Shown piece by piece: positions 6,001 to 60,454 of a stretch of 64,000 nucleotides of DNA. A program made the position numbers and the translations under genes. Within the stretch, counting starts at the first letter, position 1, and every line of letters begins with the position of its first letter. Source of the DNA: Eledone cirrhosa (Eukaryota); contig OZ024755.1 in NCBI GenBank assembly GCA_964016885.1, forward strand, positions 32,674,001 to 32,738,000. Direction: 5' to 3'. Below the pieces are notes generated by a model. That model was given only the letters and a program-made list of their open reading frames with translations. It made no database searches and was not told the DNA's origin.

Positions 6001-6029
<29 letters not shown>

Positions 6030-6424: not shown

Positions 6425-6472
<48 letters not shown>

Positions 6473-6507
6473 TATATACAAACAAATGTATATATACATT
6501 TGTATGT

Positions 6508-7310: not shown

Positions 7311-7347
<37 letters not shown>

Positions 7348-7385
7348 TGATAAAGAACACAAGAGCGTCTACAACATCAAAAGAT

Positions 7386-7945: not shown

Positions 7946-8129
7946 CTGTGGCATTGTTCCATTGTTGTTTCAACAGTAATAATTCCAAAGGTAGCTGGTT
8001 CTTGCAGGTTGGCTCTGGCCCCTGGGCTTTACTATAGCCACCTGAGAAGTGCAAATAAGATGAAATTTATTTGGGTTTTCTTGTTATATGAAATTTGTGG
8101 AAGGTTGTGAGACCCTAGTATTAGTCAAT

Positions 8130-8320
8130 AATATTGTTTCTACTCTTGACAGAAGGGCAGTAATTACCCCAGTGCATTACTGGTACTTTATTTTATCGAC
8201 CCCCGTAAGGATGAAAGGCAAAGTTGACCTCGTCGGGATTTGAATTTGGATTGGAAAGGGCCGTAACTCTATGCATCAAAGCATGGCATCCGACCCTCTA
8301 CCGCTACTGCCAATCCACCA
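8130..8320 (-). mobile_element. SINE family A, near full length
   Basis: Minus strand starts GGTGGATTGGCAGTAGCGGTAGAGGGTCGG and has the same body. Confidence 0.85.
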
Positions 8321-9419
8321 CACACACATGTACACGGACATACACACAGACATGCGCACACAAATACACACACACACAGCGACACCTGTACACACACACA
8401 CACGCGCACACGCGCACACACACAAACACACACACAGACAGAAAAACACACACACTCATATATATATATATAATGCAGTATTTGTATAAATTTTCACTTA
8501 TTGTGATGGGGAAAATTACACACAGCTTTGTTTTATTGTTAGTTTTGTTGGGGTTTTTGTTGTTGCTTTGTCTTGCTGGTCAATATATTTATGATTGAAT
8601 AAGCTGTTGTTAATCAATGGAGTCTAATATTTTTGAGTCCATCAAAACTGTAGCACTGGCTGATCTGTTCAGGCAAATAATTCTCACTGTACATTTTTAT
8701 TGATTACGTTACAAAAAGAACAGTCAGGTGTTTGGGCATTTTTTTTTTTTTTTTTTTTTTTTACCTTAATTTTTTTTTATTTTAGTAGATGGGGAATATA
8801 GAATATTATATCTATTTCCTTTTCTCTGTAATTTTTTTTCAAATAGCAATTTTTCTCCATTATATAACCCTCCCCCTTCACCTCTAGCACATTTTTTTTT
8901 TCTTCTTCTTCTCTACTTTTGATATGGTTTGCTTCTGCTCTTACAGAAAGCTGTAGGCACTTTTGTTGTGTTTTCAAAGAAAAAGCATGAACACAAATTT
9001 CAGTTCAGTTGATCAGGTTCTATAGTTTGTTGCAGGTGTTGATGTGACCTAGGAATTGACAGAACTGCTTGTAATAATACATAGCAAATGGAGCAGGATT
9101 AATCCTACTGAAAGGACACGTCATCATCATCATAGCTTAATATCTGCTTTTCCATGCTTGGATAAATCCAATAAGATGAGCTTATTGCTATTTTATCTTA
9201 TCCAAACTACATTCAGTCTCAATCCTTATTTCTCTAAAGTTAATCATGCATTACTATTCTGAAATTTCCCTTTAGTCTTAATTACTGATAGTCCCCCCCC
9301 CCCACCCCTGCTTCAAATCCCAACATTCACTCAACAAAAATACACAATCCTATCTGTTCTAGAATTAAGTATCATTTCATTTCATATTAGCATCACCATC
9401 ACCATTATCACCATTATCA

Positions 9420-11810: not shown

Positions 11811-13326
11811 ATGACACCTCCAATGAATAATAAATTAAACTGATTTCATTTTGTATATTTCTGATAACAGAAATTTGATGATGTTGGAAAGGATTAGGTT
11901 AAGGAAGGATCTACTGAATTCCACATGCAAAAGATCTTTGAAATTTCACTCCTAGTTGCAGAAAGAAAACAACAAAAATAAACTAGCAGCAGATGTTAGT
12001 GACTCTCAAGGAAAAAAGGAGATAATTTCAAGTAATTAAGAACTAATTTTTCAAAATTAATTTGTAGGAATTAAGAGAAGACAACAATGGACATGTTTTC
12101 GATCTATTAAACCTCACCAGTGAGGTATAGTTAACAAAAGTTTTACCTATAGAAAAAGGGTTATGAATAATTTAGTCTGTATAAGGATAAAGTATAAAGA
12201 TCCCATAACTCATTGTGGAGTCATAGAGGCACCATTATACGGCATGTCTAGGGCAGTTTTAAACCTGGCAGAATCAACACCCTCTCTAGGTTTGAACACA
12301 GTCGATTTTTCTACAGAGGAAGAATCAACCCTGGTACTGGACTGGTACCTTATCGGTGAGGTATAGTTAACAAGAGTTTTACATATAGAAAAAGGATTAT
12401 GAATAATTTAGTCTGTATAATTAAAAAAAAAAAAAATGATGAATTAAGAGAAATAAGTGGTATGATTCAATGGGATGAATTCAGATAAATAAATAAAGGA
12501 GAGATGTGCTGAATACCTAACAGAAAAAATTCCATAATTGAAATTTGAGAAGACACTTTAGAATATTTCTTACACGTGACATTCTGTTCAACTTTTGTGA
12601 AAATATACTGTATATATGCATCGGCAATCTCTCTATAAACATGACAGTATTGTTCTATTTGTTTGATGTTGTTTTGTTTTGATAAGATTAGTAGAAACTA
12701 GGTATTCAAAATCAATAGTTTAAGAACATCATACAACCATATCACTAAGATCAGTTTGTAAAACAACTACGTCAAAACCGTATGTTTGCAAGACAGAAAA
12801 TGTTTCTCTATTCAGGAGAAAATAGATGAAGAAAAACTTTAAAACCAAAACCAAAAAAAAAAAAACCACCCAGTCATCTAAAATATTGCAAACAAACATG
12901 CTATGTTTTATGAGAAAAAATTGTCTCAGCATGAGACAGAATTTATGTCTCAAACTTGAAAATGCCATTGTCAATTTAAAAAAATATCATCAATATATGA
13001 ATAAAATTTGAGAGTATACCCTTTAGAGAAGCATAATACCTTTCAGATTACTGATTCTAAGGTGACTAATACAAGTAGTGTAGAATAAGATCAGTTGCTA
13101 CGAGAGCAGACAAATATTCAGAAAGATATTTTAACTAGATACTTATTTATTTTTCTGTATTCACTTGAAACAATGTTATGTTTTTCTGGGACCAATTGAA
13201 TAGAGTTGGCATTCATTCCAGATATCTTTCTATCTGCCAACACCTACCCCCCACTCCACCTTTTATTTCTTCTCAGAATTGATCTCAGATTTATCTTTAA
13301 CATTTCTCGTTTCATCATCATCAGAA

Positions 13327-13590
13327 TGGTGGATTGGCAGTATTGGTAGAGCGTCGAACAACATGGCTGGCGGCATAGAGTTACATCCCTTTATGTTCTG
13401 AGTTCAAATACCGCTGAAGTTAGCTTTGCCTTTTATCCTTACGGGGGTTGATAAAATAAAGTACCAGTAATGCACTGGGGTAATTGCTGGCCTTGTGCCA
13501 AAAGTAGAAACAATTATTATGAGGGGTCTATAAAATAAAGTACCAGTAATGCACTGGGGTAATTGCTGGCCTTGTGCCAAAAGTAGAAAA
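13327..13590 (+). mobile_element. SINE family A with duplicated 3' segment
   Basis: ATAAAATAAAGTACCAGTAATGCACTGGGGTAATTGCTGGCCTTGTGCCAAAAGTAGAAA occurs twice in tandem. Confidence 0.85.
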
Positions 13591-20500: not shown

Positions 20501-21571
20501 ATAATAAATAATCATAACAATGATGGCGACCACGACGACAACAACAACAACAAAACAACAACAACTACTACAAAATCAACAACAACTAGAACAAGTAAAA
20601 GAAATATGGTAGTAAATGTAGAAAGTAAGAAATAACAAATGAAAAAAATACGATTACACGGATAAATATTCAAATGCTTTGCAAAAACAATAAAAGGGGG
20701 GGGGGGGCTATATAACAAGATGGTGGGGAAGGGGAGGGTCTAAATTAGATGGTGGGGAGGAGGATGGGGCTTCTAAATAACAAGATGGTGAGGGGGGTTC
20801 TAAATAACAAGATGGTGAGGAGCGGGGGAGGGGGGTATATTTTTAAAAAATCATTTCTCTAGGGATTTTAGTGTAATGCTAGAACAGAATTATGTTGTGC
20901 TCTAAAGTGTTTGCAGAATTCTTTACTAATATCTCTACTCCTACCCCTAGAACTGGAAGACTAAATTTTATTTTATTTTATTTTATTTTATTTTATTTAC
21001 AGTTTTTATTATATTTAGTTCTAAATGATTTGACAATAACTTTATGAAAAATACAAGAATAAATATTAAATGGTTGGCTTCATACTATGCTCTGCTTATG
21101 TTTAATTACTCTCATGGTAAGGATAAAAATATTTTAGGAATAACAATGGACCTTAATCTTATATTGTTTTCTCAGAATTCATTTTCTTCAGCCTCCTCCG
21201 GGAGAAATGAATATCCATGCAGAACTCCTAGTAAACAAACTTATATTCCCTTTTGAGTTTTCTTTGATTCCATGTATCTGTCATGTACTATAATTGAATC
21301 CATCATTTTGTCTGACCTGGCAAACTTTCAATAGACTTGTGTAGTTGGCTCAAAGTGAAAATTCAATAGCTTCTTAGTTATAGCTCCAGTTTAAATTTTA
21401 ATATGTAGGGCGATGGCAGATTGGCAGAATTGTTAAAGCATCAGACAAAATGCTTTGTTGCATTTAGTTACAACCTTCAATGTTCTGAGTTCAAATCATG
21501 CCAAAATCAACTTTGCCTTTCATCATTTCGAGGTTGACAAAATAAAGTACCAGTCAAATACTGGAGTTGAT

Positions 21572-24500
21572 TTAACTTACATTACTCTATATTTACTATT
21601 GTATTTACATTACTCTATATTTACATTACTCTATATTTACTATTGTATTTACATTACTCTATATTTACTATTGTATTTACATTACTCTATATTTACTATT
21701 GTATTTACATTACTCTATATTTACATTACTCTATATTTACTATTGTATTTACATTACTCTATATCTACTATTGTATTTACATTACTCTATATTTACTATT
21801 GTATTTACATTACTCTATATCTACTATTGTATTTACATTACTCTATATTTACTATTGTATTTACATTACTCTATATTTACTATTGTATTTACATTACTCT
21901 ATATCTACTATTGTATTTACATTACTCTATATCTACTATTGTATTTACATTACTCTATATCTACTATTGTATTTACATTACTCTATATTTACTATTGTAT
22001 TTACATTACTCTATATCTACTATTGTATTTACATTACTCTATATTTACTATTGTATTTACATTACTCTATATCTACTATTGTATTTACCTTACTCTATAT
22101 CTACTATTGTATTTACATTACTCTATATTTACTATTGTATTTACATTACTCTATATTTACTATTGTATTTACATTACTCTATATTTACTATTGTATTTAC
22201 ATTACTCTATATCTACTATTGTATTTACATTACTCTATATTTACTATTGTATTTACATTACTCTATATTTACTATTGTATTTACATTACTCTATATTTAC
22301 TATTGTATTTACATTACTCTATATTTACTATTGTATTTACATTACTCTATATCTACTATTGTATTTACATTACTCTATATTTACTATTGTATTTACATTA
22401 CTCTATATTTACTATTGTATTTACATTACTCTATATTTACTATTGTATTTACATTACTCTATATCTACTATTGTATTTACATTACTCTATATTTACTATT
22501 GTATTTACATTACTCTATATTTACTATTGTATTTACATTACTCTATATTTACTATTGTATTTACATTACTCTATATCTACTATTGTATTTACATTACTCT
22601 ATATTTACTATTGTATTTACATTACTCTATATCTACTATTGTATTTACATTACTCTATATTTACTATTGTATTTACATTACTCTATATTTACTATTGTAT
22701 TTACATTACTCTATATCTACTATTGTATTTACATTACTCTATATTTACTATTGTATTTACATTACTCTATATTTACTATTGTATTTACATTACTCTATAT
22801 TTACTATTGTATTTACATTACTCTATATCTACTATTGTATTTACATTACTCTATATTTACTATTGTATTTACATTACTCTATATCTACTATTGTATTTAC
22901 ATTACTCTATATTTACTATTGTATTTACATTACTCTATATTTACTATTGTATTTACATTACTCTATATCTACTATTGTATTTACATTACTCTATATTTAC
23001 TATTGTATTTACATTACTCTATATCTACTATTGTATTTACATTACTCTATATTTACTATTGTATTTACATTACTCTATATCTACTATTGTATTTACATTA
23101 CTCTATATTTACTATTGTATTTACATTACTCTATATTTACTATTGTATTTACATTACTCTATATCTACTATTGTATTTACATTACTCTATATTTACTATT
23201 GTATTTACATTACTCTATATTTACTATTGTATTTACATTACTCTATATCTACTATTGTATTTACATTACTCTATATTTACTATTGTATTTACATTACTCT
23301 ATATCTACTATTGTATTTACATTACTCTATATTTACTATTGTATTTACATTACTCTATATTTACTATTGTATTTACATTACTCTATATCTACTATTGTAT
23401 TTACATTACTCTATATTTACTATTGTATTTACATTACTCTATATCTACTATTGTATTTACATTACTCTATATTTACTATTGTATTTACATTACTCTATAT
23501 TTACTATTGTATTTACATTACTCTATATCTACTATTGTATTTACATTACTCTATATTTACTATTGTATTTACATTACTCTATATCTACTATTGTATTTAC
23601 ATTACTCTATATTTACTATTGTATTTACATTACTCTATATCTACTATTGTATTTACATTACTCTATATTTACTATTGTATTTACATTACTCTATATTTAT
23701 TATTGTATTTACATTACTCTATATTTACTATTGTATTTACATTACTCTATATTTACTATTGTATTTACATTACTCTATATTTACTATTGTATTTACATTA
23801 ATCTATATTTACTATTGTATTTACATTACTCTATATTTACTATTGTATTTACATTACTCTATATCTACTATTGTATTTTCATTACTCTATATTTACTATT
23901 GTATTTACATTACTCTATATTTACTATTGTATTTACATTAATCTATATTTACTATTGTATTTACATTACTCTATATTTACTATTGTATTTACATTACTCT
24001 ATATTTACTATTGTATTTACATTACTCTATATCTACTATTGTATTTACATTACTCTATATTTACATTACTCTATATCTACTATTGTATTTACATTACTCT
24101 ATATTTACATTACTCTATATCTACTATTGTATTTACATTACTCTATATTTACATTACTCTATATCTACTATTGTATTTACATTACTCTATATTTACATTA
24201 CTCTATATTTACTATTGTATTTACATTACTCTATATTTACATTACTCTATATTTACTATTGTATTTACATTACTCTATATTTACTATTGTATTTACATTA
24301 CTCTATATTTACTATTGTATTTACATTACTCTATATCTACTATTGTATTTACATTACTCTATATTTACTATTGTATTTACATTACTCTATATTTACTATT
24401 GTATTTACATTACTCTATATTTACTATTGTATTTACATTACTCTATATCTACTATTGTATTTACATTACTCTATATTTACTATTGTATTTACATTACTCT

Positions 24501-27192
24501 ATATCTACTATTGTATTTACATTACTCTATATTTACTATTGTATTTACATTACTCTATATCTACTATTGTATTTACATTACTCTATATTTACATTACTCT
24601 ATATTTACTATTGTATTTACATTACTCTATATCTACTATTGTATTTACATTACTCTATATTTACTATTGTATTTACATTACTCTATATTTACTATTGTAT
24701 TTACATTACTCTATATTTACTATTGTATTTACATTACTCTATATTTACTATTGTATTTACATTACTCTATATTTACTATTGTATTTACATTACTCTATAT
24801 CTACTATTGTATTTACATTACTCTATATTTACTATTGTATTTACATTACTCTATATTTACTATTGTATTTACATTACTCTATATTTACTATTGTATTTAC
24901 ATTACTCTATATTTACTATTGTATTTACATTACTCTATATTTACTATTGTATTTACATTACTCTATATCTACTATTGTATTTACATTACTCTATATTTAC
25001 TATTGTATTTACATTACTCTATATTTACTATTGTATTTACATTACTCTATATCTACTATTGTATTTACATTACTCTATATTTACTATTGTATTTACATTA
25101 CTCTATATTTACTATTGTATTTACATTACTCTATATTTACTATTGTATTTACATTACTCTATATTTACTATTGTATTTACATTACTCTATATTTACTATT
25201 GTATTTACATTACTCTATATTTACTATTGTATTTACATTACTCTATATTTACTATTGTATTTACATTACTCTATATCTACTATTGTATTTACATTACTCT
25301 ATATTTACTATTGTATTTACATTACTCTATATTTACTATTGTATTTACATTACTCTATATCTACTATTGTATTTACATTACTCTATATTTACTATTGTAT
25401 TTACATTACTCTATATTTACTATTGTATTTACATTACTCTATATTTACTATTGTATTTACATTACTCTATATTTACTATTGTATTTACATTACTCTATAT
25501 TTACTATTGTATTTACATTACTCTATATTTACTATTGTATTTACATTACTCTATATTTACTATTGTATTTACATTACTCTATATTTACTATTGTATTTAC
25601 ATTACTCTATATTTACTATTGTATTTACATTACTCTATATCTACTATTGTATTTACATTACTCTATATTTACTATTGTATTTACATTACTCTATATTTAC
25701 TATTGTATTTACATTACTCTATATCTACTATTGTATTTACATTACTCTATATTTACTATTGTATTTACATTACTCTATATTTACTATTGTATTTACATTA
25801 CTCTATATTTACTATTGTATTTACATTACTCTATATCTACTATTGTATTTACATTACTCTATATTTACTATTGTATTTACATTACTCTATATTTACTATT
25901 GTATTTACATTACTCTATATTTACTATTGTATTTACATTACTCTATATCTACTATTGTATTTACATTACTCTATATTTACTATTGTATTTACATTACTCT
26001 ATATCTACTATTGTATTTACATTACTCTATATTTACTATTGTATTTACATTACTCTATATTTACATTACTCTATATTTACTATTGTATTTACATTACTCT
26101 ATATCTACTATTGTATTTACATTACTCTATATTTACTATTGTATTTACATTACTCTATATTTACTATTGTATTTACATTACTCTATATTTACATTACTCT
26201 ATATTTACTATTGTATTTACATTACTCTATATTTACATTACTCTATATTTACTATTGTATTTACATTACTCTATATCTACTATTGTATTTACATTACTCT
26301 ATATTTACTATTGTATTTACATTACTCTATATTTACTATTGTATTTACATTACTCTATATTTACATTACTCTATATTTACTATTGTATTTACATTACTCT
26401 ATATTTACTATTGTATTTACATTACTCTATATTTACATTACTCTATATTTACTATTGTATTTACATTACTCTATATCTACTATTGTATTTACATTACTCT
26501 ATATTTACTATTGTATTTACATTACTCTATATTTACTATTGTATTTACATTACTCTATATTTACATTTCTCTATATTTACTATTGTATTTACATTACTCT
26601 ATATCTACTATTGTATTTACATTACTCTATATTTACTATTGTATTTACATTACTCTATATTTACTATTGTATTTACATTACTCTATATTTACTATTGTAT
26701 TTACATTACTCTATATTTACATTACTCTATATTTACTATTGTATTTACATTACTCTATATCTACTATTGTATTTACATTACTCTATATTTACATTACTCT
26801 ATATTTACTATTGTATTTACATTACTCTATATCTACTATTGTATTTACATTACTCTATATCTACTATTGTATTTACATTACTCTATATTTACATTACTCT
26901 ATATTTACTATTGTATTTACATTACTCTATATCTACTATTGTATTTACATTACTCTATATTTACATTACTCTATATTTACTATTGTATTTACATTACTCT
27001 ATATTTACTATTGTATTTACATTACTCTATATTTATTATTGTATTTTCATGGTAAAGGCTTTATCTCACATAATATTGAATCTACGAGATTTTGATATTA
27101 TTTACTTTGAGAACAATATCTTAACATCAGTATGAGTGGCCAGTTACAGCCAGTTTGAACAGAAAGAAGTGAGGGAATTGCTAAAGGGTGAA
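21572..27192 (-). mobile_element. piggyBac-type MITE expanded by an internal 28-bp array
   Basis: The array runs directly into the MITE body TTTTCATGGTAAAGGCTTTATCTCACA... and ends GCTAAAGGGTGAA. Confidence 0.85.
21577..27045. repeat. 28-bp minisatellite TTTACATTACTCTATAT[T/C]TACTATTGTA, about 195-200 units with occasional 16-bp short units
   Basis: Directly visible. The plus strand of the unit has no stop codon in any frame, which explains the 700-1830 aa ORFs. Confidence 0.97.
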
Positions 27193-27464: not shown

Positions 27465-27789
27465 GGAGGCACATGGCTTAGTGGTTAGAGCATTGGCCTT
27501 GCAATCGAAAGGTTGTGAGTTCAATTCTCAGACCGGGTGATGCCCTTGAGCAAGACACTTTATTTCACATTGCTCCAGTTTACTCAGCTGTAGAAATGAG
27601 ATGATAGGGACTGGTGTCCCTATCATTCCACTGCAAAGTGGTCGTGCAGGTGACACGGCAAAAAAGCACCCAGCACTCACTGTAAATGAGGTTGGTGTTA
27701 GGAAGGGCATCCAGCTGTAGAAATCAAGCCAGAATCAGTTCCCGTCCCACCCTTGCAAGCAGGGAAAAGTGGACGTATGATGATGATGA
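27465..27789 (+). mobile_element. SINE family B (CORE-like + RTE tail)
   Basis: Near-identical to 1234-1567. Confidence 0.85.
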
Positions 27790-28513: not shown

Positions 28514-29849
28514 AAATCAACTAGTTTGAAGTGACTTTGTTAGCATTTTTTTAATTATACATTATTTGAATCATCAAATAATGTATAATTAGCAAAAATT
28601 GGTAAAGGCCTTACCTCACATAATTATCTCAGATAATATCGAATCTATGAGATTTTCATATTTATTTTGAGAATAATACCTTAACATCAGAATGAACAGC
28701 CAAAGTATTTGAAAATATTGGGAAATATACAAAATCAGAAAATAAAGATAGAACTAAGCAAGAAAGAGTTAAATAGCAAAATACATTAACATATTAACAA
28801 ATATGTTAATAGACCAAAAACCTATATTATAGAGTAATGTAAATACTAAAAGGTTAAGAAAATATCAAATATATGACTATATGACTGAACAAAGGACTAC
28901 CTTGTTCAGAGATATAACTTATAAGATAGATAAATAAGTCTACTAAGAAATAAAACTAAAACAGAAAATGTAATGCTTAAGTTAAACACTATAGAAATGC
29001 CACTTGAACCAATGTTTGATGCAGATAATAGCATACTTATGAGGATTAGCAGTAATCTTTCAAATTACCACTGCTATTGGTATAAATGGCTTTCAAAAAT
29101 ATCCTAAAATCTTATGTGAAGACATGAGGCAAATTATAATTGAATTTATTCTAGTCTAAAGGATTTTTGCAAAAGTCCTCTCAGTGTGACAGCTTTGTAG
29201 TTAATTATTTGCCCAACAGCTAGCTCACTTCACAGGCATTCTCTGCCTTGTACAGCTCTCGGCTATACTAGGTTCCTTCAGAACATATAAGAGAATGAAT
29301 TAGGCAGATATATGGATTGGATAACAGAGCAAACTATGCCAGCATCAACGAACTTCATTATGTTGTATGGAAAGTACATCTTTGCTTTGATGAGAAGAGA
29401 TTGGGAGCAGGGTTTTGATCACATACAAGTGATATTTAAATATATGCATACCAGTGTCAGGTTTCTTTTATAGATGAGAGTGATACTGTTCCTTGGGGGA
29501 AAAAAAGACACCTGAGTGTAATTTCTCTAAGGTACAGAGAAGCCATTACAAAGAAGCTATCAAATTCTCCTTTATCAATAGAAAACTGTTCAGTGACAGA
29601 TGATGCTTTAACAATTTCATATTGTCTCTTGATGACTGTCATTTCTCTTAGGGTTTCCTCTATTCTGGTTGCCTCCCATTCACACATGCTTATTAATAAA
29701 TACAAACATATCAAGAGAGCAACAAACACCTCGCTCAACTTACTAGAAATAGCAGCCAAATATATATCAAATCATACCAATTTTTAAACACACACACACA
29801 CACATTGGGCATCTCATATGTTGACTACATCACAAATGAGCTGGTCATT

Positions 29850-31424: not shown

Positions 31425-31830
31425 TCATCATCGTCGTCATTGCAGGCTGAGTTTACACTCGCAAAGATTCAGCACGGTCTCTCAAATCGTTCCAGTCGAG
31501 CATGACATTTCTCAGTTCATCAATGTTATCAATGTTGGCATCTCTCAGCAGGGTATCAATGAATGAGACGGCCTGTCTTCCCACACTTCTTTGCCCGACT
31601 GTCAGTTTCCAGAGCCCAAGTTATGATGCTATCTCTTCTGGATGACAGATGCAGTGCCCAGCCAGTTTCATTCGTCTGCAGACAAATTTTTTTTGAGACT
31701 GGTGGTAGTGATCTGTATAGTTCCTTATTTGTCAGCTTCTGTTTCCAAAAAATGTTGAGAGCCATTCTCAACATCCTTGTGTAACACCCGTCAAATCTCT
31801 TGCATATCACTTTGTCAATAGTCCATGTAA
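31425..31830 (-). mobile_element. RTE-like LINE 3' fragment (third family)
   Basis: KRFDGCYTRMLRMALNIFWKQKLTNKELYRSLPPVSKKI followed by frameshifted RRMKLAGHCI; short (GAT/GAC)n tail. Confidence 0.75.
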
Positions 31831-33374
31831 AATATATACCTATAGAATGAATTCAATGTAGTCAGATACCTTGAGAGATTTCCATTATATTGCAGATTAT
31901 AATTCTGTTAAAAAGAGTGAGGAAGCAAGAAGCAGTCATAGAGAATCAACGAATGATGATATATATATAACTAATTCAATAGATATCTATACTTAAAAAT
32001 GTATAGTCTTCTCCAGAGATATCTCAGCCACATAGCTCATAAACCAAGATAACTTCCCTTCTGAATGTCCACTCTCCAGCAATTAGTCAACATAAACATT
32101 CTTACTGGTGTCATACTAAATTGTCATGCCTTGAAATGTTTGAATAATCTATTTTTAATATCATTTTTTAAACCTTAAGCTTATTTTTATAACAGCAGCA
32201 GAATTTCAGAAACATTACTAGACAAAAATAGAGTAGGTACATAAAATGTATGATAATCTTAGACAAAGAAGTCATAAATGGGAAAAAATAATTGCATTTT
32301 AATAATAATCTACTAATTAATAAAAATTAATGATAATGTTAAAGGTCATTTTGTCTAATTTCTTTTGATTTTGTTTAGCTTTCATGTATGTCTATGAAAC
32401 ACTTAGAGATAGCTAAGACTAAATGATGTCAGGGGATTGAAATCAGTATTTAAAGAGAGGGGGAAATTTCTAAGCTATTTTATTGTTCATTTTTATATAA
32501 AAACTTAATAATACTGAATTAATTATATGCAATTTTACTAATTTTCACTAGAAACCAAATCTATAAGTGAGTATGATGTAATGGGGGAAAAATTTGAAAG
32601 AAAATGAATTAACAACTTCAGAAAAATTAGGCAATAAGTCTCAGACATTTTTACAATTTTCCTGAAACTAAAACTATATCTAATAAAGCTCTGTTTTGTT
32701 GTTTCCTTTCATTCTTTGTCCTGTTAAAGGGAACAAGTTTAAAATTTAGCTTGTATTAAATTCTAGAGGCAGAGTAGAGCAGGAAAGATCTATTAAAAAA
32801 ATCATTATTAACTGAAGTTTTTCTCTTTATTTACTCTATTATTTAGTAATCAAATGTTATCGGTGAAACGATGTGGAAAAGCAGGAGCATATTTGGAGAA
32901 AAGACTTGACAGCAGTGATGAGGTAGAGCTGGTAATTCAGCTAATCTTTTTTTTATTTGATAAAGAATGTAGAATGGGGAAGTAATGCAGCAGTATATAA
33001 ATCAAGGCAGAGTTTTCAAGCATTATGTCAATGCCTCATCATCATAATAAACTGAAACTGCTGATAGACATTTTAGATTATTAAATGTTTTATCAAATTA
33101 TGCTCACAGTATCACACTCTTGATATGAGCACCAGACAAAAAGAAATACATGTCTCATCAATCATACTATCTAAGCTATAGAAAATATCTAATACAACCA
33201 CTCCATTCTAGTCTTGAAGATTAAACTCCATACCCTATTATCTCAATGTACTCCATATAATAGATATGTTGGTTTACACCAGATGTATTTCTATAATGTA
33301 CCCACTAGATGTATCCACCAGAGGTTTTGCTAGTCTTTCTACTAGTTATATGACTGTTTAATGTAGTAATATAG

Positions 33375-43635: not shown

Positions 43636-44698
43636 ATTAAATTGGTGTTTGGAACTTAACAAAATTTCTTCTATAAATTTTCTGACAGAAGGTTTAGATT
43701 TGAATATGAACACATTAAAATAAAGTTTTTGTTTTTTTTCATAGAACTAGAAGCAGTTTATAATGAAGAGGGTTAAGTATAAATATCAACAAATACCCAA
43801 TGATTCTATTTTGTAAATGTGGTTGGCGTTAGGAAGGAGATCCAGCTGTAGAAACCCTGTGTGAGCAAAACAGGGTCCTCCAACCTGAGCTCTCACAATG
43901 GAACAGCCCGTCCTACCTATGCTAGTGTGGAAAATGGCTGTTAAACGATGATGATGATGATTATACTTTTGGCAATTCTTTATAGATTAACAAATAACAA
44001 TATTTTTTGAAAATATGTTAACTTAAAGTTTCAACGTAGATTTTTTTTTACTATGAAAAATAGTCTAACAAGCTGGACATAGCCTCTAGAGATGGGAAAA
44101 AGTGGACAGCATCGCTTGTGGGATTCAAACTCACATCTGTCGTATAAATAACTAAAATATTTTGAATGGTTGGATAAATTTAGTAGATAGCATTGCACTT
44201 CATCATTGCTTCAGTGTAAAATAATTATGTTGCTACAAATATGATATATAGGTGAAAGTAATTTAAAGAAAGAGACAAGAAAAACAGGATTGAAAGAGTA
44301 TAAGAATGTCTGTATGCTAACCAAGGAATCCTATAATGTGGGTATTAATGTGTAAATATCAATAATCTCTCTCTCTATATATATATATGTATGTGTGTAT
44401 ATATATATATATGTGTGTGTGTGTGTATATATATATATCATCATCCATCATCATCATCCTTGTTTAACGTCCACTTTCCACGCTAGCATGGGTTATATAT
44501 ATATATAGTAATAATAATAAATTTGAAAACTAAAATCCAAAGAGGGCTTGATAAGGATAAATATATATATAACCAAAGTTTAATATGGTTCGTTGATTAT
44601 TCAATGAATACAATTTTACAATAGATTAGAAGCACTCGACAGAAGATTTTCCTGGAATTGAATAATCAAAACCGTAGCGGTATGTCACATATCAAATC

Positions 44699-44767
44699 AT
44701 ATATTTTATCTGATGAAAACATACTTAAACACCATTGTACCTTTGCAATATGTATAATAAAATATAT
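44699..44767 (+). ncRNA. decayed hammerhead motif, paralogue of 47149-47214
   Basis: AUAUAUUUUAU-CUGAUGA-...-GCAA-UAUGUA-UA|AUAAAAUAUAU. Stem I is 11 bp; GAAA is mutated to GCAA and stem II is decayed. Confidence 0.5.
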
Positions 44768-44807
44768 ATTTTGATTATGAGAATATTTTTCATTTATTAA
44801 CATTTTG

Positions 44808-44845
<38 letters not shown>

Positions 44846-45019
44846 CCACACACACTGTAAATGTGTTTGGTGTTAAGAAGGGCATCCAGGTGTAAAAAAG
44901 TGGCAGAGAGACAGTCTCCCGAACATTCCTACATCAAATGGAACAAAACCGTCTAACCCATGCTAGCATGGAAGATAGACGTTAAACGATGATGATGGTG
45001 GTATATATATATATATACA

Positions 45020-45368
45020 GGAGGCACATGGCTTAGTGGTTAGAGCATTGGCCTTGCAATCAAAAGGTTGTGAGTTCAATTCTCAGACTGGGTGATGTGT
45101 TGTTTCCTTGAGCAAGACACTTTATTTCACATTGCTCCAGTTTACTCAGCTGTAGAAATGAGATGATAGGGACTGGGGTCCATATCATTCCACTGCAAAG
45201 TGGTCGTGGAGGTGCCACGGCAAAAAAGCACCCAGCACTCACTGTAAATGAGGTTGGTGTTAGGAAGGGCATCCAGCTGTAGAAACCAAGCCAGAATCAG
45301 TTCCCGTCCCACCCTTGCAAGCAGGGAAAAAGCGGACGTAAAATGAAATGATGATGATGAAATGATGA
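45020..45368 (+). mobile_element. SINE family B (CORE-like + RTE tail)
   Basis: Near-identical to 1234-1567. Confidence 0.85.
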
Positions 45369-46074
45369 TACACACACACATACACAAATTTGTATATTAA
45401 CTCTTGTGTCACTAGCATGTACATACACACATACATTTATAAACCTAAAGAATGAATATAAGATAATTGATAAAATCTGGAATCTTTATTGCAGCAAAAT
45501 GATACACAATACTCATTCAGGATATTTATTTTATCAAAAAAAAATTTAAATGCCTAATAACTACTTCCTCTTAGAATTCTATACTATCAGGAAAACATTA
45601 AAACATTTGGCAAGTTTTCCTATCCATACTGCCATATTATTAGATAACAGATGAAAACTATCTTATATCTTAAACAGAAATCCATTTAGCTTTCATGAAG
45701 TCCATACCTCCCAAAGTGAAATATATCTAGCAGCTATGTTGGAGATTATTTTTCAGCAGGATTCTTGAAATGAATTTTCATGACTATTCCTTCTTAAGGA
45801 TTTAATAAATCAACATTTATTGGGCTAATTTGATAAATATTTGGTAGTATATTATGGTGGCTTCTCCTTACAGAATAAGAAAACTATGATTTAAAATTCC
45901 CAATTAAAATATTGTTATCTAATGAAATATACAGCTGCAGATAGCAAGAAGATTATAGTGGTTCCTAGTTTATGAGCAACACAGATAATATTTCTGGTTT
46001 GTCCTTTTCTGTTATTCTTCAATGGTTCTTATATTGGTTTTAAATCATTAGACTGTGGTCATGCTGGAGCACTA

Positions 46075-46278
46075 CCTTTACCATTTACATTACTCTATAT
46101 TTTCTATTGTATTTTCACAGTAAAAGCTTTATCTCACATAATATTGAATCTACGAGATTTTGATGTTATTTATGTTGAGAACAATACCTTAACATCAGTA
46201 CAAGCAGCCAGTTATGGCCAGTTTGAACAGAAAGAGGTGAGAGAATTCTGGCCAGATATGGCTGCTTTAAAGGGTTAA
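46075..46278 (-). mobile_element. piggyBac-type MITE with damaged ends
   Basis: Body matches 14303-14517. Confidence 0.8.
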
Positions 46279-46399
46279 AGGGTAGTATTTCTTTTTACAA
46301 GTATGGTACTTATTTTATTGATCTCTTGTTGTTGAACTACTAAGTTATGGAACACAGACTGAGACAAAAATATAAATACAGACATGGACACACACACAT

Positions 46400-46852
46400 T
46401 GCAGACCCAAGAAGACCTGGGATGAGGTGATAAAAACCGACCTTACCCAATTACACCTCTCAAAGGCGATGACACACGACCGTGACCTCTGGCGACACGC
46501 AGTAATACAGAAGACCCGACCCCCACGGGTACAAGCCGATGCTGAAGCATATAAACAATATGCCCCCACACCCTCCCACTGCAAAGTGGATGTGTAGGCG
46601 CCACGGAAAAAAAAGCACCCAGCACTCGCTGTAAAGTGGTCATGGAGGCACCACAGAAAAAAAGCACCCAGCACTCACTGTAAATGAGGTTGGTGTTAGA
46701 AAGGGCATCCAGCTGTAGAAATCAAGCCAGAATCAGTTCCTGTATGAGCAAGACAAGGTCAGCCGACCGGACACTGCCCACAACAGGACAACCCGTCTAA
46801 CCCATGCTAGCGTGGAAGAACGGACGTAAAACGGTGATGATGATGATGATTG
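46400..46852 (+). mobile_element. RTE LINE 3' end (ORF C-terminus + UTR + (GAT)n)
   Basis: RPKKTWDEVIKTDLTQLHLSKAMTHDRDLWRHAVIQKTRPP, followed by a UTR shared with SINE B. Confidence 0.85.
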
Positions 46853-47148
46853 TTATACTTGAGGAGGGTCATATTGTTGTAATAATATTGCCAGAAATAA
46901 TAACAGAACACACTCACTGTTTGGTTGGTTTTTGCTTCTGTATCTTTTATATCTCCATAGTTAATTTATTTGGCAATCAACGTTTATCATTGATTGACCA
47001 ATGGTTAAAAATACAGATCTAAATATATATATATATATATATATAATTAAAAGTTTAACAAGGTTCAATGAATTAATCAATGAATAAAGTTTCACAGTAG
47101 GACTGAATTATAACCATCAACATAGTCAAGGTATGTCAGGCATCAACT

Positions 47149-47214
47149 TATTTTATCTGATGAGGACGTACTGTTGAAATAGCTCAGTACCTCTGAAATA
47201 TGTATAATAAAATA
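47149..47214 (+). ncRNA. minimal type I hammerhead ribozyme motif
   Basis: UAUUUUAU-CUGAUGA-GGACGUACUG(UUGAAAUAGCU)CAGUACCUCU-GAAA-UAUGUA-UA|AUAAAAUA. Core intact; 8-bp stem I; 10-bp stem II with one mismatch and one wobble; near-palindromic stem III AUAUGUAU. Lies in a (TA)n-flanked insert at 47047-47258. Confidence 0.75.
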
Positions 47215-47570
47215 TATTTGATCACATGAATGTCTATATTTATTAATATTTTGAATATATATATATATATATATATATAGTCTAACAAAGTTCTTTCATT
47301 GCACATCTGCAACATCATCAGTGGTACTATTATGTTGCCTCATGGTATTGTATTGTCTATGCCATTTTTATTTTTATAAATAAAAATTAAATTAAAAAGA
47401 GGGGTTCCTCTGGTAGAAGTGAAAATGCCCTGGATTGAGTTGAGTATCATTATTCAATATAAAAATAGCTCCTACAGCACTAAAACTATATTATTTGCTT
47501 ACACTCTATTAATGTATTGAGTACCTTTTTAACTGTGGTTACCCCCAATTTCTCTCACATGTATATACAC

Positions 47571-50961: not shown

Positions 50962-50996
<35 letters not shown>

Positions 50997-51289
50997 AAGT
51001 CTAACAACAAGAATAACAAGAGGATGGAGTGGCTGCTTGCGAGCTGGACTGGTGAGAGGGAAGCAGCTATAAAGAAGTGAATGATGGGGAAAGCAGCAGT
51101 CCAAGTGAGGATGGAGGGAGGGCAGGATAAGAATAATAATAATAATAATGAAATATATTGAGAATAATGAGAAATAGCAGGCAAAAAGAATCAAACAAAA
51201 GACCTCCCCACAAAAAAAAGTAGACAAATAAAAAGAGATTAAGGAAAGAAAGGACACTTCCATTAATGTCACTGCAGTATATCATTGTC

Positions 51290-52192
51290 ACCACTACCAC
51301 TACTACTGCTGCTGCTACCACCACTACTACTACTGTTGCTACTACTACTACCACCACCACAATTACTACCACTACTGATCTGCTGCTACTACTATTACTG
51401 CTGCTGTTACCACCACTACTACTACTGTTGCTACTACTACTACCACCACCACAATTACTACCACTACTGATCTGCTGCTACTACTATTACTGCTGCTGTT
51501 ACCACCACTACTACTACTACTGCTACCACCACTACCACTACTACTACTACTACTACCACCATCACCACTACTACTATTGCTACTGCTACTACCACACTAC
51601 TACTGCTACTACCACCATCACCACTACTATTGCTGCTGCTACTACCACCACACTACTACTGCTACTACTACTACTACAGTTACTACTACCACCACCACCA
51701 CTACTACCACCCTACTACTACTACTACCACCAACACCACTACAGAAATGTTTATAAGATATTGTCTATCTTTAGCCCACCAAAACAAGGTGGTGGTGGTG
51801 GTAGTAGTAGTGGTGGTGGTGGTAGTAGTGGTGGTGGTGGTAGTGGTGATGATAGTGGTGGTAGTAGTGGTGGTGGTGGTGGTAGTGGTAGTGGTGGTAG
51901 TGGTGGTAGTAGTGGTGGTGGTGGTGGTGGTGGTGGTGGTGATGATAGTGGTGGTAGTAGTGGTGGTAGTGGTGTTGGTGGTGGTAGTAGTAGTAGTAGT
52001 GGTGTTGGTTGTAGTAATAATGGTGGTAGTAGTAGTAGTGGTGGTAATAGTAGTAGTGGTGGTAATAGTAGTAGTAGCAGTAGTGGTGGTGGTAATAGTA
52101 GTAGTAGCAGTAGTGGTGGTGGTAATAGTAGTAGTAGCAGTAGTGGTGGTGGTAGTAGTAGCAGTAGTGGTAGTAGTAGTAGTAGTAGTACA
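51290..52192. repeat. (CTA/CCA)n tract followed by a complementary (GTA/GGT)n tract
   Basis: Directly visible; about 45-bp spacer at 51742-51787. Confidence 0.95.
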
Positions 52193-53710: not shown

Positions 53711-54861
53711 TTAACCCTTTAGTATTTAAACTGGCCATATCCGGCCAGAATTCTCACACCTCTTTCTGTTCAAACCAGCTGTAACCAGTTGCTCATACTG
53801 ATGTTAAGGTATTGTTCTCAAAATAAATAATATCAAAATTATTATAGATAATTATGTGAGGTAAAACCTTTACCATGAAAATATAATAGTAAATATAGAG
53901 TAATGTAAATGTTATGTGAGATATTATGTGAGGTAAAGCCTTTACCATGAAAATATAATAGTAAATGTAGAGTAATGTAAATGTTATGTGAAATATTATG
54001 TGAGATAAAGCCTTTACCATGAAAATATAATAGTAAATATAGAGTAATGTAAATGTTATGTGAGATATTATGTGAGGTAAAGCCTTTACCATGAAAATAT
54101 AATAGTAAATATAGAGTAAAGTAAATGTTATGTGAGATATTATGTGAGGTAAAGCCTTTACCATGAAAATATAATAGTAAATGTAGAGTAATGTAAATGT
54201 TATGTGAAATATTATGTGAGATAAAGCCTTTACCATGAAAATATAATAGTAAATATAGAGTAATGTAAATGTTATGTGAGATATTATGTGAGGTAAAAGC
54301 CTTTACCATGAAAATATAATAGTATATATAGAGTAATGTAAATGTTATGTGAGATATTATGTGAGGTAAAGCCTTTACCATGAAAATATAATAGTAAATA
54401 TAGAGTAATGTAAATGTTATGTGAGATATTATGTGAGGTAAAGCCTTTACCATGAAAATACAATAGTAAATATAGAGTAATGTAAATGTTATGTGAAATA
54501 TTATGTGAGGTAAAGCCTTTACCATGAAAATATAATAGTAAATATAGAGTAATGTAAATGTTATGTGAGATATTATGTGAGGTAAAAGCCTTTACCATGA
54601 AAATATAATAGTAAATATAGAGTAATGTAAATGTTATGTGAAATATTATGTGAGGTAAAGCCTTTACCATGAAAATATAATAGTAAATATAGAGTAATGT
54701 AAATGTTATGTGAAATATTATGTGAGGTAAAGCCTTTACCATGAAAATATAATAGTAAATATAGAGTAATGTAAATGTTATGTGAAATATTATGTGAGAT
54801 AAAGCCTTTACCATGAAAATATAATAGTAAATGTAGAGTAATGTAAATGGTAAAGGGTTAA
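53711..54861 (+). mobile_element. piggyBac-type MITE with an internal 72-bp array (about 14 units)
   Basis: Both TIRs intact (TTAACCCTTTAGTATTTA / TAAATGGTAAAGGGTTAA); TACCATGAAA recurs every 72 bp. Confidence 0.92.
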
Positions 54862-55508
54862 TAATAGACGTATCTGAAGTAAAAATAGCTATAACAGCAA
54901 TACAAAAAATAACTGAAATCTAGATAATTAAAATTGCAGGGCTAAGGTTGGAATGGTTCGGTAAAAAAAAATGTATACATTCGAAATATGTTCTCTCCCT
55001 CCCTACTCTCATCACTTAATGCAAGAAACACTTTGTAAAAGTATGTTTTACATAAAAAGAAACCAAAAAAACAACCACAGATTATCAAGAAGGCTGACAA
55101 GAAAAAAAAACAAGGAGCCTGTGTAGATTTCTCATTTGATGTGTTTATAACATTTAGTCAATTTTTTTACTCTTTTTAAACAGAAAAAATAATTTCAATG
55201 GATCAAAAGAAGTTGAATAAACAAGTCAAAAGGTTTTTGTTAATGTTATAAATTTTTTTTTAAATGTGGGCAAAGTAATTCCTAAGATTGTTTTACTATT
55301 TGTTTCATTAAAATAATTTTTAATTTAAATAATTTAATTAGACAAGGGCAACTAGAGAATTGTTATTCTGCTCTGAAAACAAATATTTACAAATTCAGTT
55401 TTAATTTTTTGGGGACTGCAGGATATTTTTAGGTATAAAAATTTAACGAATGTGTTAATGAATGAATTACAATATCTTTTCAGTTCATATTTTACTGCTA
55501 TATTTCTA

Positions 55509-56030
55509 AGGTGCGTGGCCTAGTGGTAAGGGTGTTGGACTTACGATTGTAATGTCGTGGGTTTGATTCCAGGGCTGGGTTGTGTGTAGTGTTCTTGAGC
55601 AAAACACTTCATTTCACGTTGCTCCAGTATACTCAGTGGAGGTGTGTGGCCTAGTGGTAAGGGTGTTGGACTTATGATCGTAATGTCGTGGGTTTGATTC
55701 CAGGGCTGGGTTGTGTGTAGTGTTCTTGAGCAAAACACTTCATTTCACATTGCTCCAGTATACTCAGTTGAAAATGAGTACCAGCAATAGCTGGGGGTTT
55801 AACCCTGCGATGGACTGGCATCCTGTCCAGGGGGGGGGGGAGTCTTGTACTCTCAGTCACTTAATGTTAAGGAAACTGGGAGCTCCAGTATACCCAGCTG
55901 AAATTGAGTACCAGTAATAGCTGGGGGTTTAACCCTGCAATGGATTGGCATCTTATCCAGGGGGGAGTCTTGTACTCTCAGTTACTTTATATCATGAAAC
56001 TGGGATAAACATTGGTCTAACAAGCCTTAA
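55509..56030 (+). mobile_element. CORE-like SINE with a different tail (CCCTGCGATGGACTGGCATCCTGTCCAGGG); head and tail each duplicated
   Basis: 131-bp head duplication (A box TGGCCTAGTGG, B-box-like GGTTTGATTCC); tail segment repeated at about 55770 and about 55900. Confidence 0.75.
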
Positions 56031-56035
56031 ATGGC

Positions 56036-56724
56036 TTAACCCTTTAATGTTCAAACCGGCTAAAACCGGCCAGAATTCTCTACCTTTTTCTGTTGAAACT
56101 GACTATAACTGGTCACTCAAACTGATGTTAAGGTATTGTTCTCAAAATAAATACTTTCAAAATCTCATAGATTCGATATTATGTGAGATAATTATGTGAG
56201 ATAAAGCCTTTACCATGAAAATATAATAGTAAATATAGAGTAATGTAAATGTTATGTGAAATATTATGTGAGGTAAAGCCTTTACCATGAAAATATAATA
56301 GTAAATATAGAGTAATGTAAATGTTATGTGAAATATTATGTGAGGTAAAGCCTTTACCATGAAAATATAATAGTATATATAGAGTAATGTAAATGCTATG
56401 TGAAATATTATGTGAGGTAAAGCCTTTACCATGAAAATATAATAGTATATATAGAGTAATGTGAAATATTATGTGAGGTAAAGCCTTTACCATGAAAATA
56501 TAATAGTATATATAGAGTAATGTGAAATATTATGTGAGGTAAAGCCTTTACCATGAAAATATAATAGTATATATAGAGTAATGTGAAATATTATGTGAGG
56601 TAAAGCCTTTAACCATGAAAATATAATAGTATATATAGAGTAATGTGAAATATTATGTGAGGTAAAGCCTTTACCATGAAAATATAATAGTATATATAGA
56701 GTAATGTGAATGGTAAAGGGTTAA
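56036..56724 (+). mobile_element. piggyBac-type MITE with internal 72-bp then 61-bp units (about 8 in total)
   Basis: TTAACCCTTTAATG ... ATGGTAAAGGGTTAA. Confidence 0.9.
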
Positions 56725-57822: not shown

Positions 57823-60110
57823 ATTCTTCTTCTTCTTTGTCCATTTATTCCTAAGAGGGTCATGGGGGAAGAGTTCTCAAATACTCCATCCAATGGGTCC
57901 TGTCAGAAGCAACAGTCTCCAACTGATCTGGCTGGATTCCCAAGGGACAGAGTCCTCAAACACTCCCTCTAGTGGGTCCTGTCAGAAGCAACAGTCTCCA
58001 ACTGATCTGGCTGGATCCCCAAGTGACAGAGTCCTCAAACACTCCCTCTGGTGGGTCCTGTCAGAAGCAACAGTCTCCAACTGATCTGGCTGGATCTCCA
58101 AGTGACAGAGTCCCCAAACACTCCCTCTAGTGGGTCCTGTCAGAAGCAACAGTCTCCAACTGATCTGGCTGGATCCCCAAGTGACAGAGTCCTCAAACAC
58201 TCCCTCTAGTGGGTCCTGTCAGAAGCAACAGTCTCCAACTGATCTGGCTGGATTCCCAAGGGACAGAGTCCCCAAACACTCCCTCTAGTGGGTCCTGTCA
58301 GAAGCAACAGTCTCCAACTGATCTGGCTGGATCCCCAAGTGACAGAGTCCTCAAACACTCCCTCTAGTGGGTCCTGTCAGAAGCAACAGTCTCCAACTGA
58401 TCTGGCTGGATTCCCAAGGGACAGAGTCCTCAAACACTCCCTCTAGTGGGTCCTGTCAGAAGCAACAGTCTCCAACTGATCTGGCTGGATTCCCAAGGGA
58501 CAGAGTCCCCAAACACTCCCTCTAGTGGGTCCTGTCAGAAGCAACAGTCTCCAACTGATCTGGCTGGATTCCCAAGGGACAGAGTCCTCAAACACTCCCT
58601 CTAGTGGGTCCTGTCAGAAGCAACAGTCTCCAACTGATCTGGCTGGATTCCCAAGGGACAGAGTCCCCAAACACTCCCTCTAGTGGGTCCTGTCAGAAGC
58701 AACAGTCTCCAACTGATCTGGCTGGATCCCCAAGTGACAGAGTCCTCAAACACTCCCTCTAGTGGGTCCTGTCAGAAGCAACAGTCTCCAACTGATCTGG
58801 CTGGATTCCCAAGGGACAGAGTCCTCAAACACTCCCTCTAGTGGGTCCTGTCAGAAGCAACAGTCTCCAACTGATCTGGCTGGATTCCCAAGGGACAGAG
58901 TCCCCAAACACTCCCTCTAGTGGGTCCTGTCAGAAGCAACAGTCTCCAACTGATCTGGCTGGATTCCCAAGGGACAGAGTCCTCAAACACTCCCTCTAGT
59001 GGGTCCTGTCAGAAGCAACAGTCTCCAACTGATCTGGCTGGATCCTCAAGTGACAGAGTCCTCAAACACTCCCTCTAGTGGGTCCTGTCAGAAGCAACAG
59101 TCTCCAACTAATCTGGCTGGATCCCCAAGTGACAGAGTCCTCAAACACTCCCTCTAGTGGGTCCTGTCAGAAGCAACAGTCTCCAACTGATCTGGCTGGA
59201 TTCCCAAGGGACAGAGTCCTCAAACACTCCCTCCAGTGGGTCCTGTCAGAAGCAACCATCTCCAACTGATCTGGCTGGATCCCCAAGCAAGACCAGCTAA
59301 GCTCATGGATGTTATCCAACCATCTTGCTTGGGGTCTACCCCTGGGTCTCCTACTGGTTGGTTTTGCCTGTAAAATCTATCCAGCAATTCTTTCCTGAGA
59401 GATTCTTACCATATGTCCATAGTATCGGAGCTGTGATCTCTCAATTCAGAGAACTAGTGGCTCCACCTGGAGTGACTCTCCAGCAATTCTTTCCTGAGAC
59501 ATTCTAACCACATGTCCATTGTATCGGAGCCGTGATCACTCAATTCAGAGAAGTAGCGGCTCTACCTAGAGTGACTCTCTAGTGATTCTTTCCTGAGACA
59601 TTCTAACCACATGCCCATAGTATCAGAGCTGTGATCTCTCAATTCAGAGAAGTAGAGGCTCTATCTGGAGTGACTCTCTGATCTCCAAACTACGCACTTT
59701 ATCGAGTAAAGTTACTCCAAAGATCCTTTGGAGGAATGTCATTTCAGCTGCTTGTATTCGCATGATCATAGGTAAGGGTTGGCATGAAAACCGAATTGAA
59801 GATGGCAAGTTTGGCTTTTACGCCTTTTTCTGATTACTGGATACTGCAGCTGGCATATTACTGCACCAGCTCCTGCAATTTTTGCACTTAATTTAGCCTC
59901 CTGCCTTCCATCATTTGTGAACACAGCCTCGAGATACTTGAACTTCTCCACCTGCTTCAGTGGAACTCCATTTACATATAGAGTGCACTGTTCAGGCTTC
60001 CTTGAGAGGATGAGCATCTCAGATTTCGCAGCACTGGGCATCAAACCTATCAAGTGCAAGTCGGAGGTCACCTTCTGTCAAGTTAAGTAACACCATGTCG
60101 TCTGCAATTT
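57823..60110 (-). mobile_element. RTE LINE 3' half (RT C-terminal part to tail) with a 79-bp array (57895-59285, about 17 units) and three 99-bp units
   Basis: IADDMV RT motif at about 60090-60108; KSEMLILSRK...LYVNGVPLKQVEKFKYL; (GAA)n tail on the minus strand near 57825. Confidence 0.88.
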
Positions 60111-60454
60111 CCACTCGACAGATTTTAAACTCGCCAGTCATGAAACCACTTCCAACCCAATTCTATTTCATATACTATAAATATTCTACTTTTATTCCTA
60201 ACTCTTTGTTACCTGACAACACAATGAACCAGCAAAATTAGTTCTGACATGCATAACAAATGTGACAAAATCTCAACTATTTTTTAAAATACGATTATTT
60301 TCTTTCCTTTAATGCTAATTAATTTTAATATAATTTGATGTAAAATATCAAATTTTTCAAATTCAAAATTCTTTTCAATCTCTTTATACCCTTTTTATAA
60401 TTATTTAAATGTTTATCACAAGGGTTTATATAATAATAATAATAATAATGATAA

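Follow-up and report, generated by a model that had tools for sequence, protein, structure and literature searches.

The 64-kb window analysed here, which is the whole stretch of DNA under study from contig OZ024755.1, harbors two diverged copies of a short repeat with the layout of a type I hammerhead ribozyme (Table 1). The window consists of AT-rich, animal-type DNA, about 60% of which is tandem or self-repeating, and its dispersed repeats appear similar to those of octopus genomes. The element is a high-copy family. We favor the interpretation that both stretches are dispersed copies of a protein-free, high-copy repeat flanked by TA runs. This repeat probably descends from Penelope-like elements as a non-autonomous offshoot, namely a monomer of a retrozyme without long terminal repeats (non-LTR retrozyme), and its ribozyme would cut mainly as a dimer. 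The nearest competing account treats the same copies as solo pseudo-LTRs or truncated ends of a longer Penelope-like element. That one or the other of these two accounts holds, and the element is a high-copy hammerhead repeat of the Penelope/retrozyme lineage, is highly probable.

Structure and conservation of the two copies

The copies align over their full length with 70.3% identity (276 columns, E 4e-28), which bears out their initial annotation as a paralogous pair. The alignment ends at the TA runs, with no likeness further out. Each of the four element ends lies at most about 2 nt from a TA run of at least 10 nt, as had also been proposed; the window contains 43 such runs, and 0.67% of its positions fall within 5 nt of one. 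Every string quoted as common to both copies was recovered at its place. These are TATTTTATCTGATGA (44702 and 47149), AATATGTATAATAAAATATAT (44747 and 47197), AAAGTTTAA (44575 and 47050), and TTTATTAA.ATTTTGAATA (44793-44811 and 47239-47257). The copies lie 2.2 kb apart, separated by other DNA, and nhmmer found no third copy in the 64-kb window (next best E 1). Stop codons occur in all six frames of both copies, leaving no open reading frame (ORF).

Table 1. Coordinates of the element copies, their ribozyme parts, and adjoining features in the window
Feature	Position	Strand	Remarks
Copy 1 of the element	44572..44811	+	240 bp, 25% GC; TA runs 44561-44570 and 44812-44841 on either side
Upstream motif GGTATGTCA, copy 1	44679..44687	+	complementary to the stem II 5' strand
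Degenerate type I hammerhead, copy 1	44699..44767	+	from sequence and pair table
Stem I, copy 1	44699-44709/44757-44767	+	11 bp
Core, copy 1	CUGAUGA 44710-44716, GCAA 44745-44748	+	A13C change, C at 44746
Stem III AUAUGUAU, copy 1	44748-44755	+	would-be cut after 44756
Spacer between copies	44842..47022	.	further dispersed repeats plus unique AT-rich sequence; no ORF of Penelope type seen
Copy 2 of the element	~47046..47254	+	~210 bp, 27% GC; TA runs 47023-47044 and 47255-47278 on either side
Extended stem I, 5' strand, copy 2	47130..47146	+	pairs with 47218-47234; includes GGTATGTCA at 47130-47138
Type I hammerhead, copy 2	47149..47214	+	complete layout; from descriptor match, pair table, two-row alignment, and family variation
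Stem I, copy 2	47149-47156/47207-47214	+	8 bp, A-U throughout
Core CUGAUGA, copy 2	47157-47163	+
Stem II, copy 2	47164-47173/47185-47194	+	9 of 10 pairs, one C-C mismatch
Loop II, copy 2	47174-47184	+
Core GAAA, copy 2	47195-47198	+
Palindromic stem III AUAUGUAU, copy 2	47198-47205	+	DNA form ATATGTAT
Predicted cut site, copy 2	after A47206 (A17)	+
Extended stem I, 3' strand, copy 2	47218..47234	+	pairs with 47130-47146
(TA)12 run at the 3' end of copy 2	47255..47278	.	possibly part of the repeating unit; putative role
Start repeat	47279..47293	+	13 of 15 bases as at 47052-47066, directly after the 3' TA run; candidate more-than-unit-length tail

Copy 2 has the type I core order CUGANGA/GAAA/NUH with both ends in stem I. 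It is the sole match to a type I hammerhead descriptor in the window, and none of 150 block-shuffled windows gave a match as good, so the complete fold initially described, with a predicted cut after 47206, is upheld as a layout. Copy 1 departs from this order at A13. With GCAA in place of GAAA and a weak stem II in the pair table, its core is predicted to be dead and likely inactive, a judgment based on the established hammerhead core rules. The type I hammerhead models of Rfam (Hammerhead_1, a name also used for giant squid in PMC6962438) describe the same catalytic core and topology, yet neither copy scored. On the whole window, Rfam returned 77 matches with E no higher than 1, almost all of them simple-repeat matches resembling microRNAs (miRNAs), but no hammerhead model detected either copy, and a search of 47090-47250 returned no hammerhead and 4 weak unrelated matches. 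Hence, such families escape routine annotation.

Conservation between the copies is uneven along the ribozyme. The 5' strand of stem I, the core, and the segment comprising GAAA, stem III, and the 3' strand of stem I are identical in 34 of 35 ungapped columns, compared with 125 of 166 in the remaining columns (Fisher p 0.0014, for segments picked after the alignment had been viewed). Stem II with its loop is identical at only 18 of 28 positions, under both the 5' arm (41/50) and the tail (34/42). The proposal that the hammerhead is the best-conserved part of the element stands for stem I, the core, and stem III, but not for stem II with its loop. One G-C/A-U swap separates the copies in stem II. 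When the extended stem I is included, 58 of 60 cells of the two-row alignment are paired, against 32-54% with slid partners.

Family variation and predicted cleavage

Contigs from 4 of 23 listed sequencing runs were aligned to 46950-47340 at a likeness of at least 80%; none of the 23 is recorded as RNA, a fact with no bearing on expression. This alignment passed over the TA-flanked ends of copy 2, and summed depth is no measure of copy number. A public DNA run (X1) yielded 1,420 contigs on copy 2, which establishes the element as a high-copy family. Of these, 1,001 are less than 99% alike, the contigs being distributed as 419, 400, 413, and 188 over likeness classes of 99% or more, 95-99%, 90-95%, and under 90%. 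Another run (X4), whose library kind is not on record and which is not taken as expression evidence, gave 45 contigs. Two runs guessed to be RNA from other organisms (X19 and X20) gave no contigs at this likeness, which is no proof of absence. Summed depth in X1 is highest over the ribozyme (455,088-859,782 in the four top bins), with 77,111 near the 3' end and 5,174-8,853 over the 5' arm (47062-47103), the latter about 50- to 170-fold under the ribozyme bins. The family plausibly comprises thousands of copies, with the ribozyme as its most widely shared part.

Sixteen substitutions are listed at 5% of depth or more. None lies in the core, seven are in the distal stem I region, six in loop II, and three in stems I-III. 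This agrees with the expectation that the core is preferentially conserved among genomic copies, within an alignment biased toward words of copy 2. Pairing is kept in all three stem substitutions (47194 T>C, 47202 G>A, and 47214 A>G); the pair changes in these stems comprise U-A to U-G, G-U to G-C, and U-G to U-A. Elsewhere, the majority base is T at 47139 (77% of depth), where it completes a 5-bp helix broken in copy 2, and T at 47146 (78%), where it removes a terminal pair.

These data also bear on stem III, which the initial annotation had read as a CpG-decayed form of ATACGTAT. That reading fails. The form ATATGTAT is present in both copies, and T>C at 47201 does not reach 5% of depth in either run covering copy 2 (X1 and X4). 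Within stem III the one variant recorded is G>A at 47202, seen in 58 contigs (6% of depth); as it occurs alone, with no listed T>C at 47201, the variant form is ATATATAT. Thus, ATATGTAT is the normal stem III of the family. Its RNA form AUAUGUAU is self-complementary through U-G wobbles, at -2.2 kcal/mol compared with -6.5 kcal/mol for the CG form.

Some contigs depart from the simple pattern. A joint leading from 47209 through two extra bases to 47132 occurs in contigs of both X1 and X4 (depth 137.8 and 29.4), possibly from an 80-bp hammerhead-only tandem or an internal duplication elsewhere in the genome; worked by hand, the upstream unit would retain 3 bp of stem I. Single-contig loose ends of X4 at 47187 and 47217 resemble stem II and the tail of copy 1 but carry G in place of the A found at 44721 in the window, a change that restores a G-C pair. 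They appear to represent a copy-1-like allele or subfamily in the second sample. Two further X4 contigs, of 362 and 704 bases, end at 47101 and carry about 290 and 640 unlike bases upstream; these could be longer family members or a parent element.

Folding models, whose energies leave out tertiary contacts, were used to assess activity. For the segment 47140-47225, the models give the active monomer fold a weight of about 2e-5 if stem III is included and 6e-3 if it is left out; over the full copy 2 the corresponding values drop to 4e-11 and 1e-8. Unconstrained folding did not give the hammerhead. The homodimeric double hammerhead of copy 2 is modelled at -21.8 kcal/mol, as opposed to -5.1 kcal/mol per monomer with stem III, and comes within 2.7 kcal/mol of the best dimer fold (-24.5 kcal/mol). 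A lone ribozyme is thereby predicted to be seldom in the active fold, with the homodimer competitive. A double hammerhead of copy 1 with copy 2, also modelled, was not favored (-13.5 versus -21.9 kcal/mol for the best joint fold). Minimal Penelope motifs showed no cleavage as monomers and weak cleavage as dimers (PMC4209133), and the ribozyme of this element may act like such dimer-type hammerheads. Monomers of coral and mussel retrozymes with a short stem III do cut (PMC7229834), and by analogy monomer activity of copy 2 is possible. Copy 2 had been singled out as the best candidate for an active ribozyme. This is sustained relative to copy 1, with its broken core, but weakened beyond that comparison by the rare predicted monomer fold and by its being one of very many copies.

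A further element of control may lie upstream. The motif GGUAUGUCA precedes the ribozyme in both copies (44679 and 47130) and can either take part in the extended stem I or bind the 5' strand of stem II instead. The latter pairing is modelled at -10.5 versus -8.6 kcal/mol for the native stem II in copy 2, and at -6.7 versus -1.0 kcal/mol in copy 1. On these energies, GGUAUGUCA could block stem II, and we hypothesize that it serves as an off switch. A bolder scenario builds on this idea. The genome would hold thousands of dispersed monomers of a ribozyme circle of about 235 nt, the TA run inside the circle would prime on genomic TA repeats, GGUAUGUCA would keep the ribozyme off until a partner is met, and copies in the same transcript would pair and cut each other. 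We consider this full scenario unlikely. If true, copy 2, with its intact core, would cleave copy 1 after position 44756, and conditional cut sites would be strewn through host introns.

Origin of the element and relation to known systems

The favored reading of the element as a non-autonomous, Penelope-derived unit draws in part on its ends. Random 5' truncation would rarely give copies that are 30% diverged yet share both ends and nothing past the TA runs. The common start of the diverged copies, together with the start repeat after copy 2, favors a short unit complete in itself over a truncated long element. Sites with 13/15 likeness to the start number three on both strands of the window, namely the two starts and 47279-47293, and 1 of 20,000 shuffled flanks reached this likeness. 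A start repeat beyond the TA run fits one round of copying in which the TA run belongs to the template, be it tandem or circular, and its presence hints at such a template.

The dimensions of the element agree with this origin. As an ORF-free unit of 210-240 bp and 25-27% GC with a type I hammerhead, it falls within the short, low-GC format of retrozymes (about 150-450 bp). It also displays two marks of autonomous Penelope-like elements, a hammerhead near the 3' end and a preference for (TA)n. Animal retrozymes are reported to span 51-972 bp, to occur often as monomers, and to derive from Penelope pseudo-LTRs (10.64898/2026.07.22.740005), a derivation that unites the retrozyme and pseudo-LTR accounts. 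Hydra-clade Penelope-like elements show (TA)n insertion preference in 26 of 27 supplementary rows, one of them from Octopus bimaculoides, and their 3' hammerheads carry a short palindromic stem III (PMC8557442 supplement). Across 24 entries of that supplement, our arithmetic puts the cut at 29-354 nt from the 3' end, and in 10 of them at 29-47 nt (PMC8557442). The predicted cut of the present element lies about 50-55 nt from the 3' end.

The proposed route would begin with tandem source loci read through by transcription. Two ribozymes would join via the self-complementary AUAUGUAU and cut after the base equivalent to 47206, freeing a unit of about 235 nt, UA run included, that may form a circle. 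The reverse transcriptase (RT) and GIY-YIG nuclease of a TA-targeting Penelope-like element would then nick a genomic TA run, and priming on the UA run of the unit would be followed by one round of copying. The product would have fixed ends, TA on each side and, in some cases, a few additional start bases, as seen after copy 2. Most such monomers, both copies included, are probably passive.

Several observations weigh against this reading. No start repeat follows the TA run of copy 1, and the start-like 10-mer AGTCTAACAA recurs at 44062 and 50998, so the terminal repeat may be due to chance. No full-unit tandem array was seen, in a contig alignment that passed over the TA-flanked ends and would have missed end-to-start joints. 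Linear and circular units of the present element fold no better than shuffles (z -0.7 to -1.5, for two probably decayed copies), whereas the literature portrays retrozyme circles as highly self-paired (PMC7229834); with the TA run included, 12 and 26 of 100 shuffles fold as well. Having failed the self-pairing test, and with neither tandem arrays nor circular RNA in evidence, the element is only a candidate for retrozyme membership in the strict sense. Covariation in the two-row alignment did not exceed the shuffle control (237/500), and the contig alignment favors copies that share words with copy 2, so that core conservation is partly built in. In Xenopus, one of nine dimers cleaved (10.64898/2026.07.22.740005). 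The parent element was not found. Short motifs of the element are absent from the published consensus file for Naiad, Chlamys, and Hydra elements (PMC8557442 supplement), in which line breaks can hide a motif. No ORF for an RT with GIY-YIG occurs in the copies or spacer, and Pfam gave no match above cut-off for 43 selected non-repeat ORFs of the 248 listed in the window. Separately, AGTCTAACAA lies directly after a TA run at 50998 (window 50964-51007) and stands alone at 44062, with no further likeness to the element at either site.

In the principal competing account, an autonomous TA-targeting Penelope-like element of the Hydra, Neptune, or Penelope type left the copies behind as solo pseudo-LTRs or as 3' ends truncated on their 5' side; the ribozyme would belong to the parent and the fragments would never have been self-mobile. 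We regard this as a serious but clearly less probable account. It stays alive through a 218-bp rotifer pseudo-LTR with an optional 31-bp tail, which fits in size, and through reported solo pseudo-LTRs (PMC3846280). Its argument gains from the 50- to 170-fold lower depth of the 5' arm and from some X4 contigs that run hundreds of unlike bases before 47101, both of which would follow from 5' truncation or a longer parent. Loose ends before 47101-47126, however, resemble by eye a diverged arm and not random flank, the two diverged copies begin at one place, and the tail after copy 2 repeats the start of the unit itself, not that of an ORF. Minimal animal hammerheads are mostly single motifs, probably from truncated elements, with a long helix II as in this element (PMC4209133), and Penelope-like elements account for 6.83% of the O. 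vulgaris genome (PMC13282606 supplement). Yet no inverted pseudo-LTR or ORF remnant was seen in the copies or nearby, and stem I has 8-11 bp plus further helices, compared with the 4-5 bp described for minimal motifs.

Other accounts carry far less weight. Copy 2 could be an efficient stand-alone ribozyme kept by the host and cutting a transcript at 47206, which we judge very improbable. Although its core is intact, and coral and mussel retrozymes cut as monomers with no more than a 2-bp stem III and a tetraloop (PMC7229834, PMC7761336), copy 2 is one of very many copies and is off the majority base at 47139 and 47146. Moreover, the models seldom put its monomer in the active fold, loop II varies too freely to suggest a conserved loop-loop contact, and neither a host gene nor its strand was identified in the window. 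Slightly less credible is a short interspersed nuclear element (SINE)-like repeat moved by other long interspersed nuclear element (LINE) machinery, with the hammerhead as a passenger. Such an origin would suit the fixed length, high copy number, and 3' microsatellite, but not TA runs at both sides; ARAGORN found no transfer RNA (tRNA) gene in the window, Rfam found no small-RNA head at either copy, and a type I hammerhead with palindromic stem III is a Penelope-like mark (PMC4209133, PMC8557442). Least probable of all is a TA-inserting miniature inverted-repeat transposable element of the Tc1/mariner type, with terminal inverted repeats, that captured a hammerhead. Here, the TA flanks and a loose AT-rich resemblance of the ends are set against within-copy end-to-end inverted similarity that did not exceed shuffles (p 0.05-0.59, six tests). 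One of two cross-copy inverted-end tests gave p 0.02, uncorrected.

Two groups of described systems come closest to the element. With metazoan non-LTR retrozymes (PMC7229834; 10.64898/2026.07.22.740005) it shares a short, ORF-free, low-GC unit of a size in range, a type I hammerhead, a 2-bp stem III with palindromic tetraloop, high copy number, common dispersed monomers, and proposed Penelope-like mobilisation. In contrast to them, it shows no full-unit tandem and no significant self-pairing, its stem II has 9 bp rather than 4, and TA runs lie at both ends. Most metazoan circles are said to leave the ribozyme free (PMC7229834), whereas the conserved upstream segment of this element could block stem II. 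With the pseudo-LTR hammerheads of Penelope-like elements (PMC4209133), including the Hydra clade with Hydra-1_Obim (PMC8557442), it shares a type I motif near the 3' end, a long helix II, a palindromic stem III, predicted dimer action, (TA)n preference, a short tail extension, and mostly single dispersed motifs. Unlike these, the element has no attached RT/GIY-YIG ORF and no bulged base after A9, its stem I is longer, and its sequence is unlike the listed Hydra-1_oBim hammerhead. It also has G-U or A-U instead of G-C at 10.1-11.1, G-C constituting a 1.6-6% variant.

Searches elsewhere returned little. An exact two-half hammerhead pattern had no match in viral contigs and none in metagenome contigs. 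Relaxed patterns matched 102 loci in viral contigs, of which none had both stems, and at least 118 metagenome loci, none convincing among the matches listed; both sets were taken as chance, and the best nhmmer E among the 220 viral and metagenome loci listed was 0.14. No description of the element's family was found in the literature on hammerhead ribozymes and retrozymes in octopus, cephalopods, molluscs, and Penelope, the nearest being the Hydra-1_Obim hammerhead and the giant squid Rfam loci. The latter number 235 (PMC6962438), and the accessible portion of the O. vulgaris repeat annotation does not mention ribozymes (PMC13282606). The element is mostly one more example of the hammerhead-bearing Penelope offshoots already published for corals, mussels, amphibians, and others. 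If its source is an octopus, it represents an abundant ribozyme family missed by Rfam. Its common ends, two-sided TA runs, and start repeat offer a concrete test of the unproven circle-to-Penelope copying idea for animal retrozymes.

Other features of the window

Several further repeats were observed. The frames at 29460-29771, 31456-31852, and 59769-60162 (minus strand) and at 4203-4505 (plus strand) have no Pfam match above cut-off; by eye, their motifs resemble those of decayed pieces of LINE reverse transcriptase. Three tRNA-like Rfam matches, at 4023-4094, 27474-27531, and 45027-45090 (39.6, 28.1, and 30.3 bits), were not called by ARAGORN and are probably heads of tRNA-derived SINEs. A large inverted repeat at 51654-51899, with (TAC/CAC)n and (GTG/GTA)n arms and a spacer of about 50 bases, gives the top spurious matches to Rfam miRNA families. 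Short frames on opposite strands at 12830-13330, by eye coiled-coil-like on the plus strand and resembling an acidic C-terminus on the minus strand near 13324, are possible host exons. Long low-complexity stretches at 21437-27135 and 53793-56529 have frames that repeat short peptide units (...TLLYIYYCI...). Their text occurs once near 46080-46150, which suggests that a single piece of a dispersed repeat was amplified in tandem.

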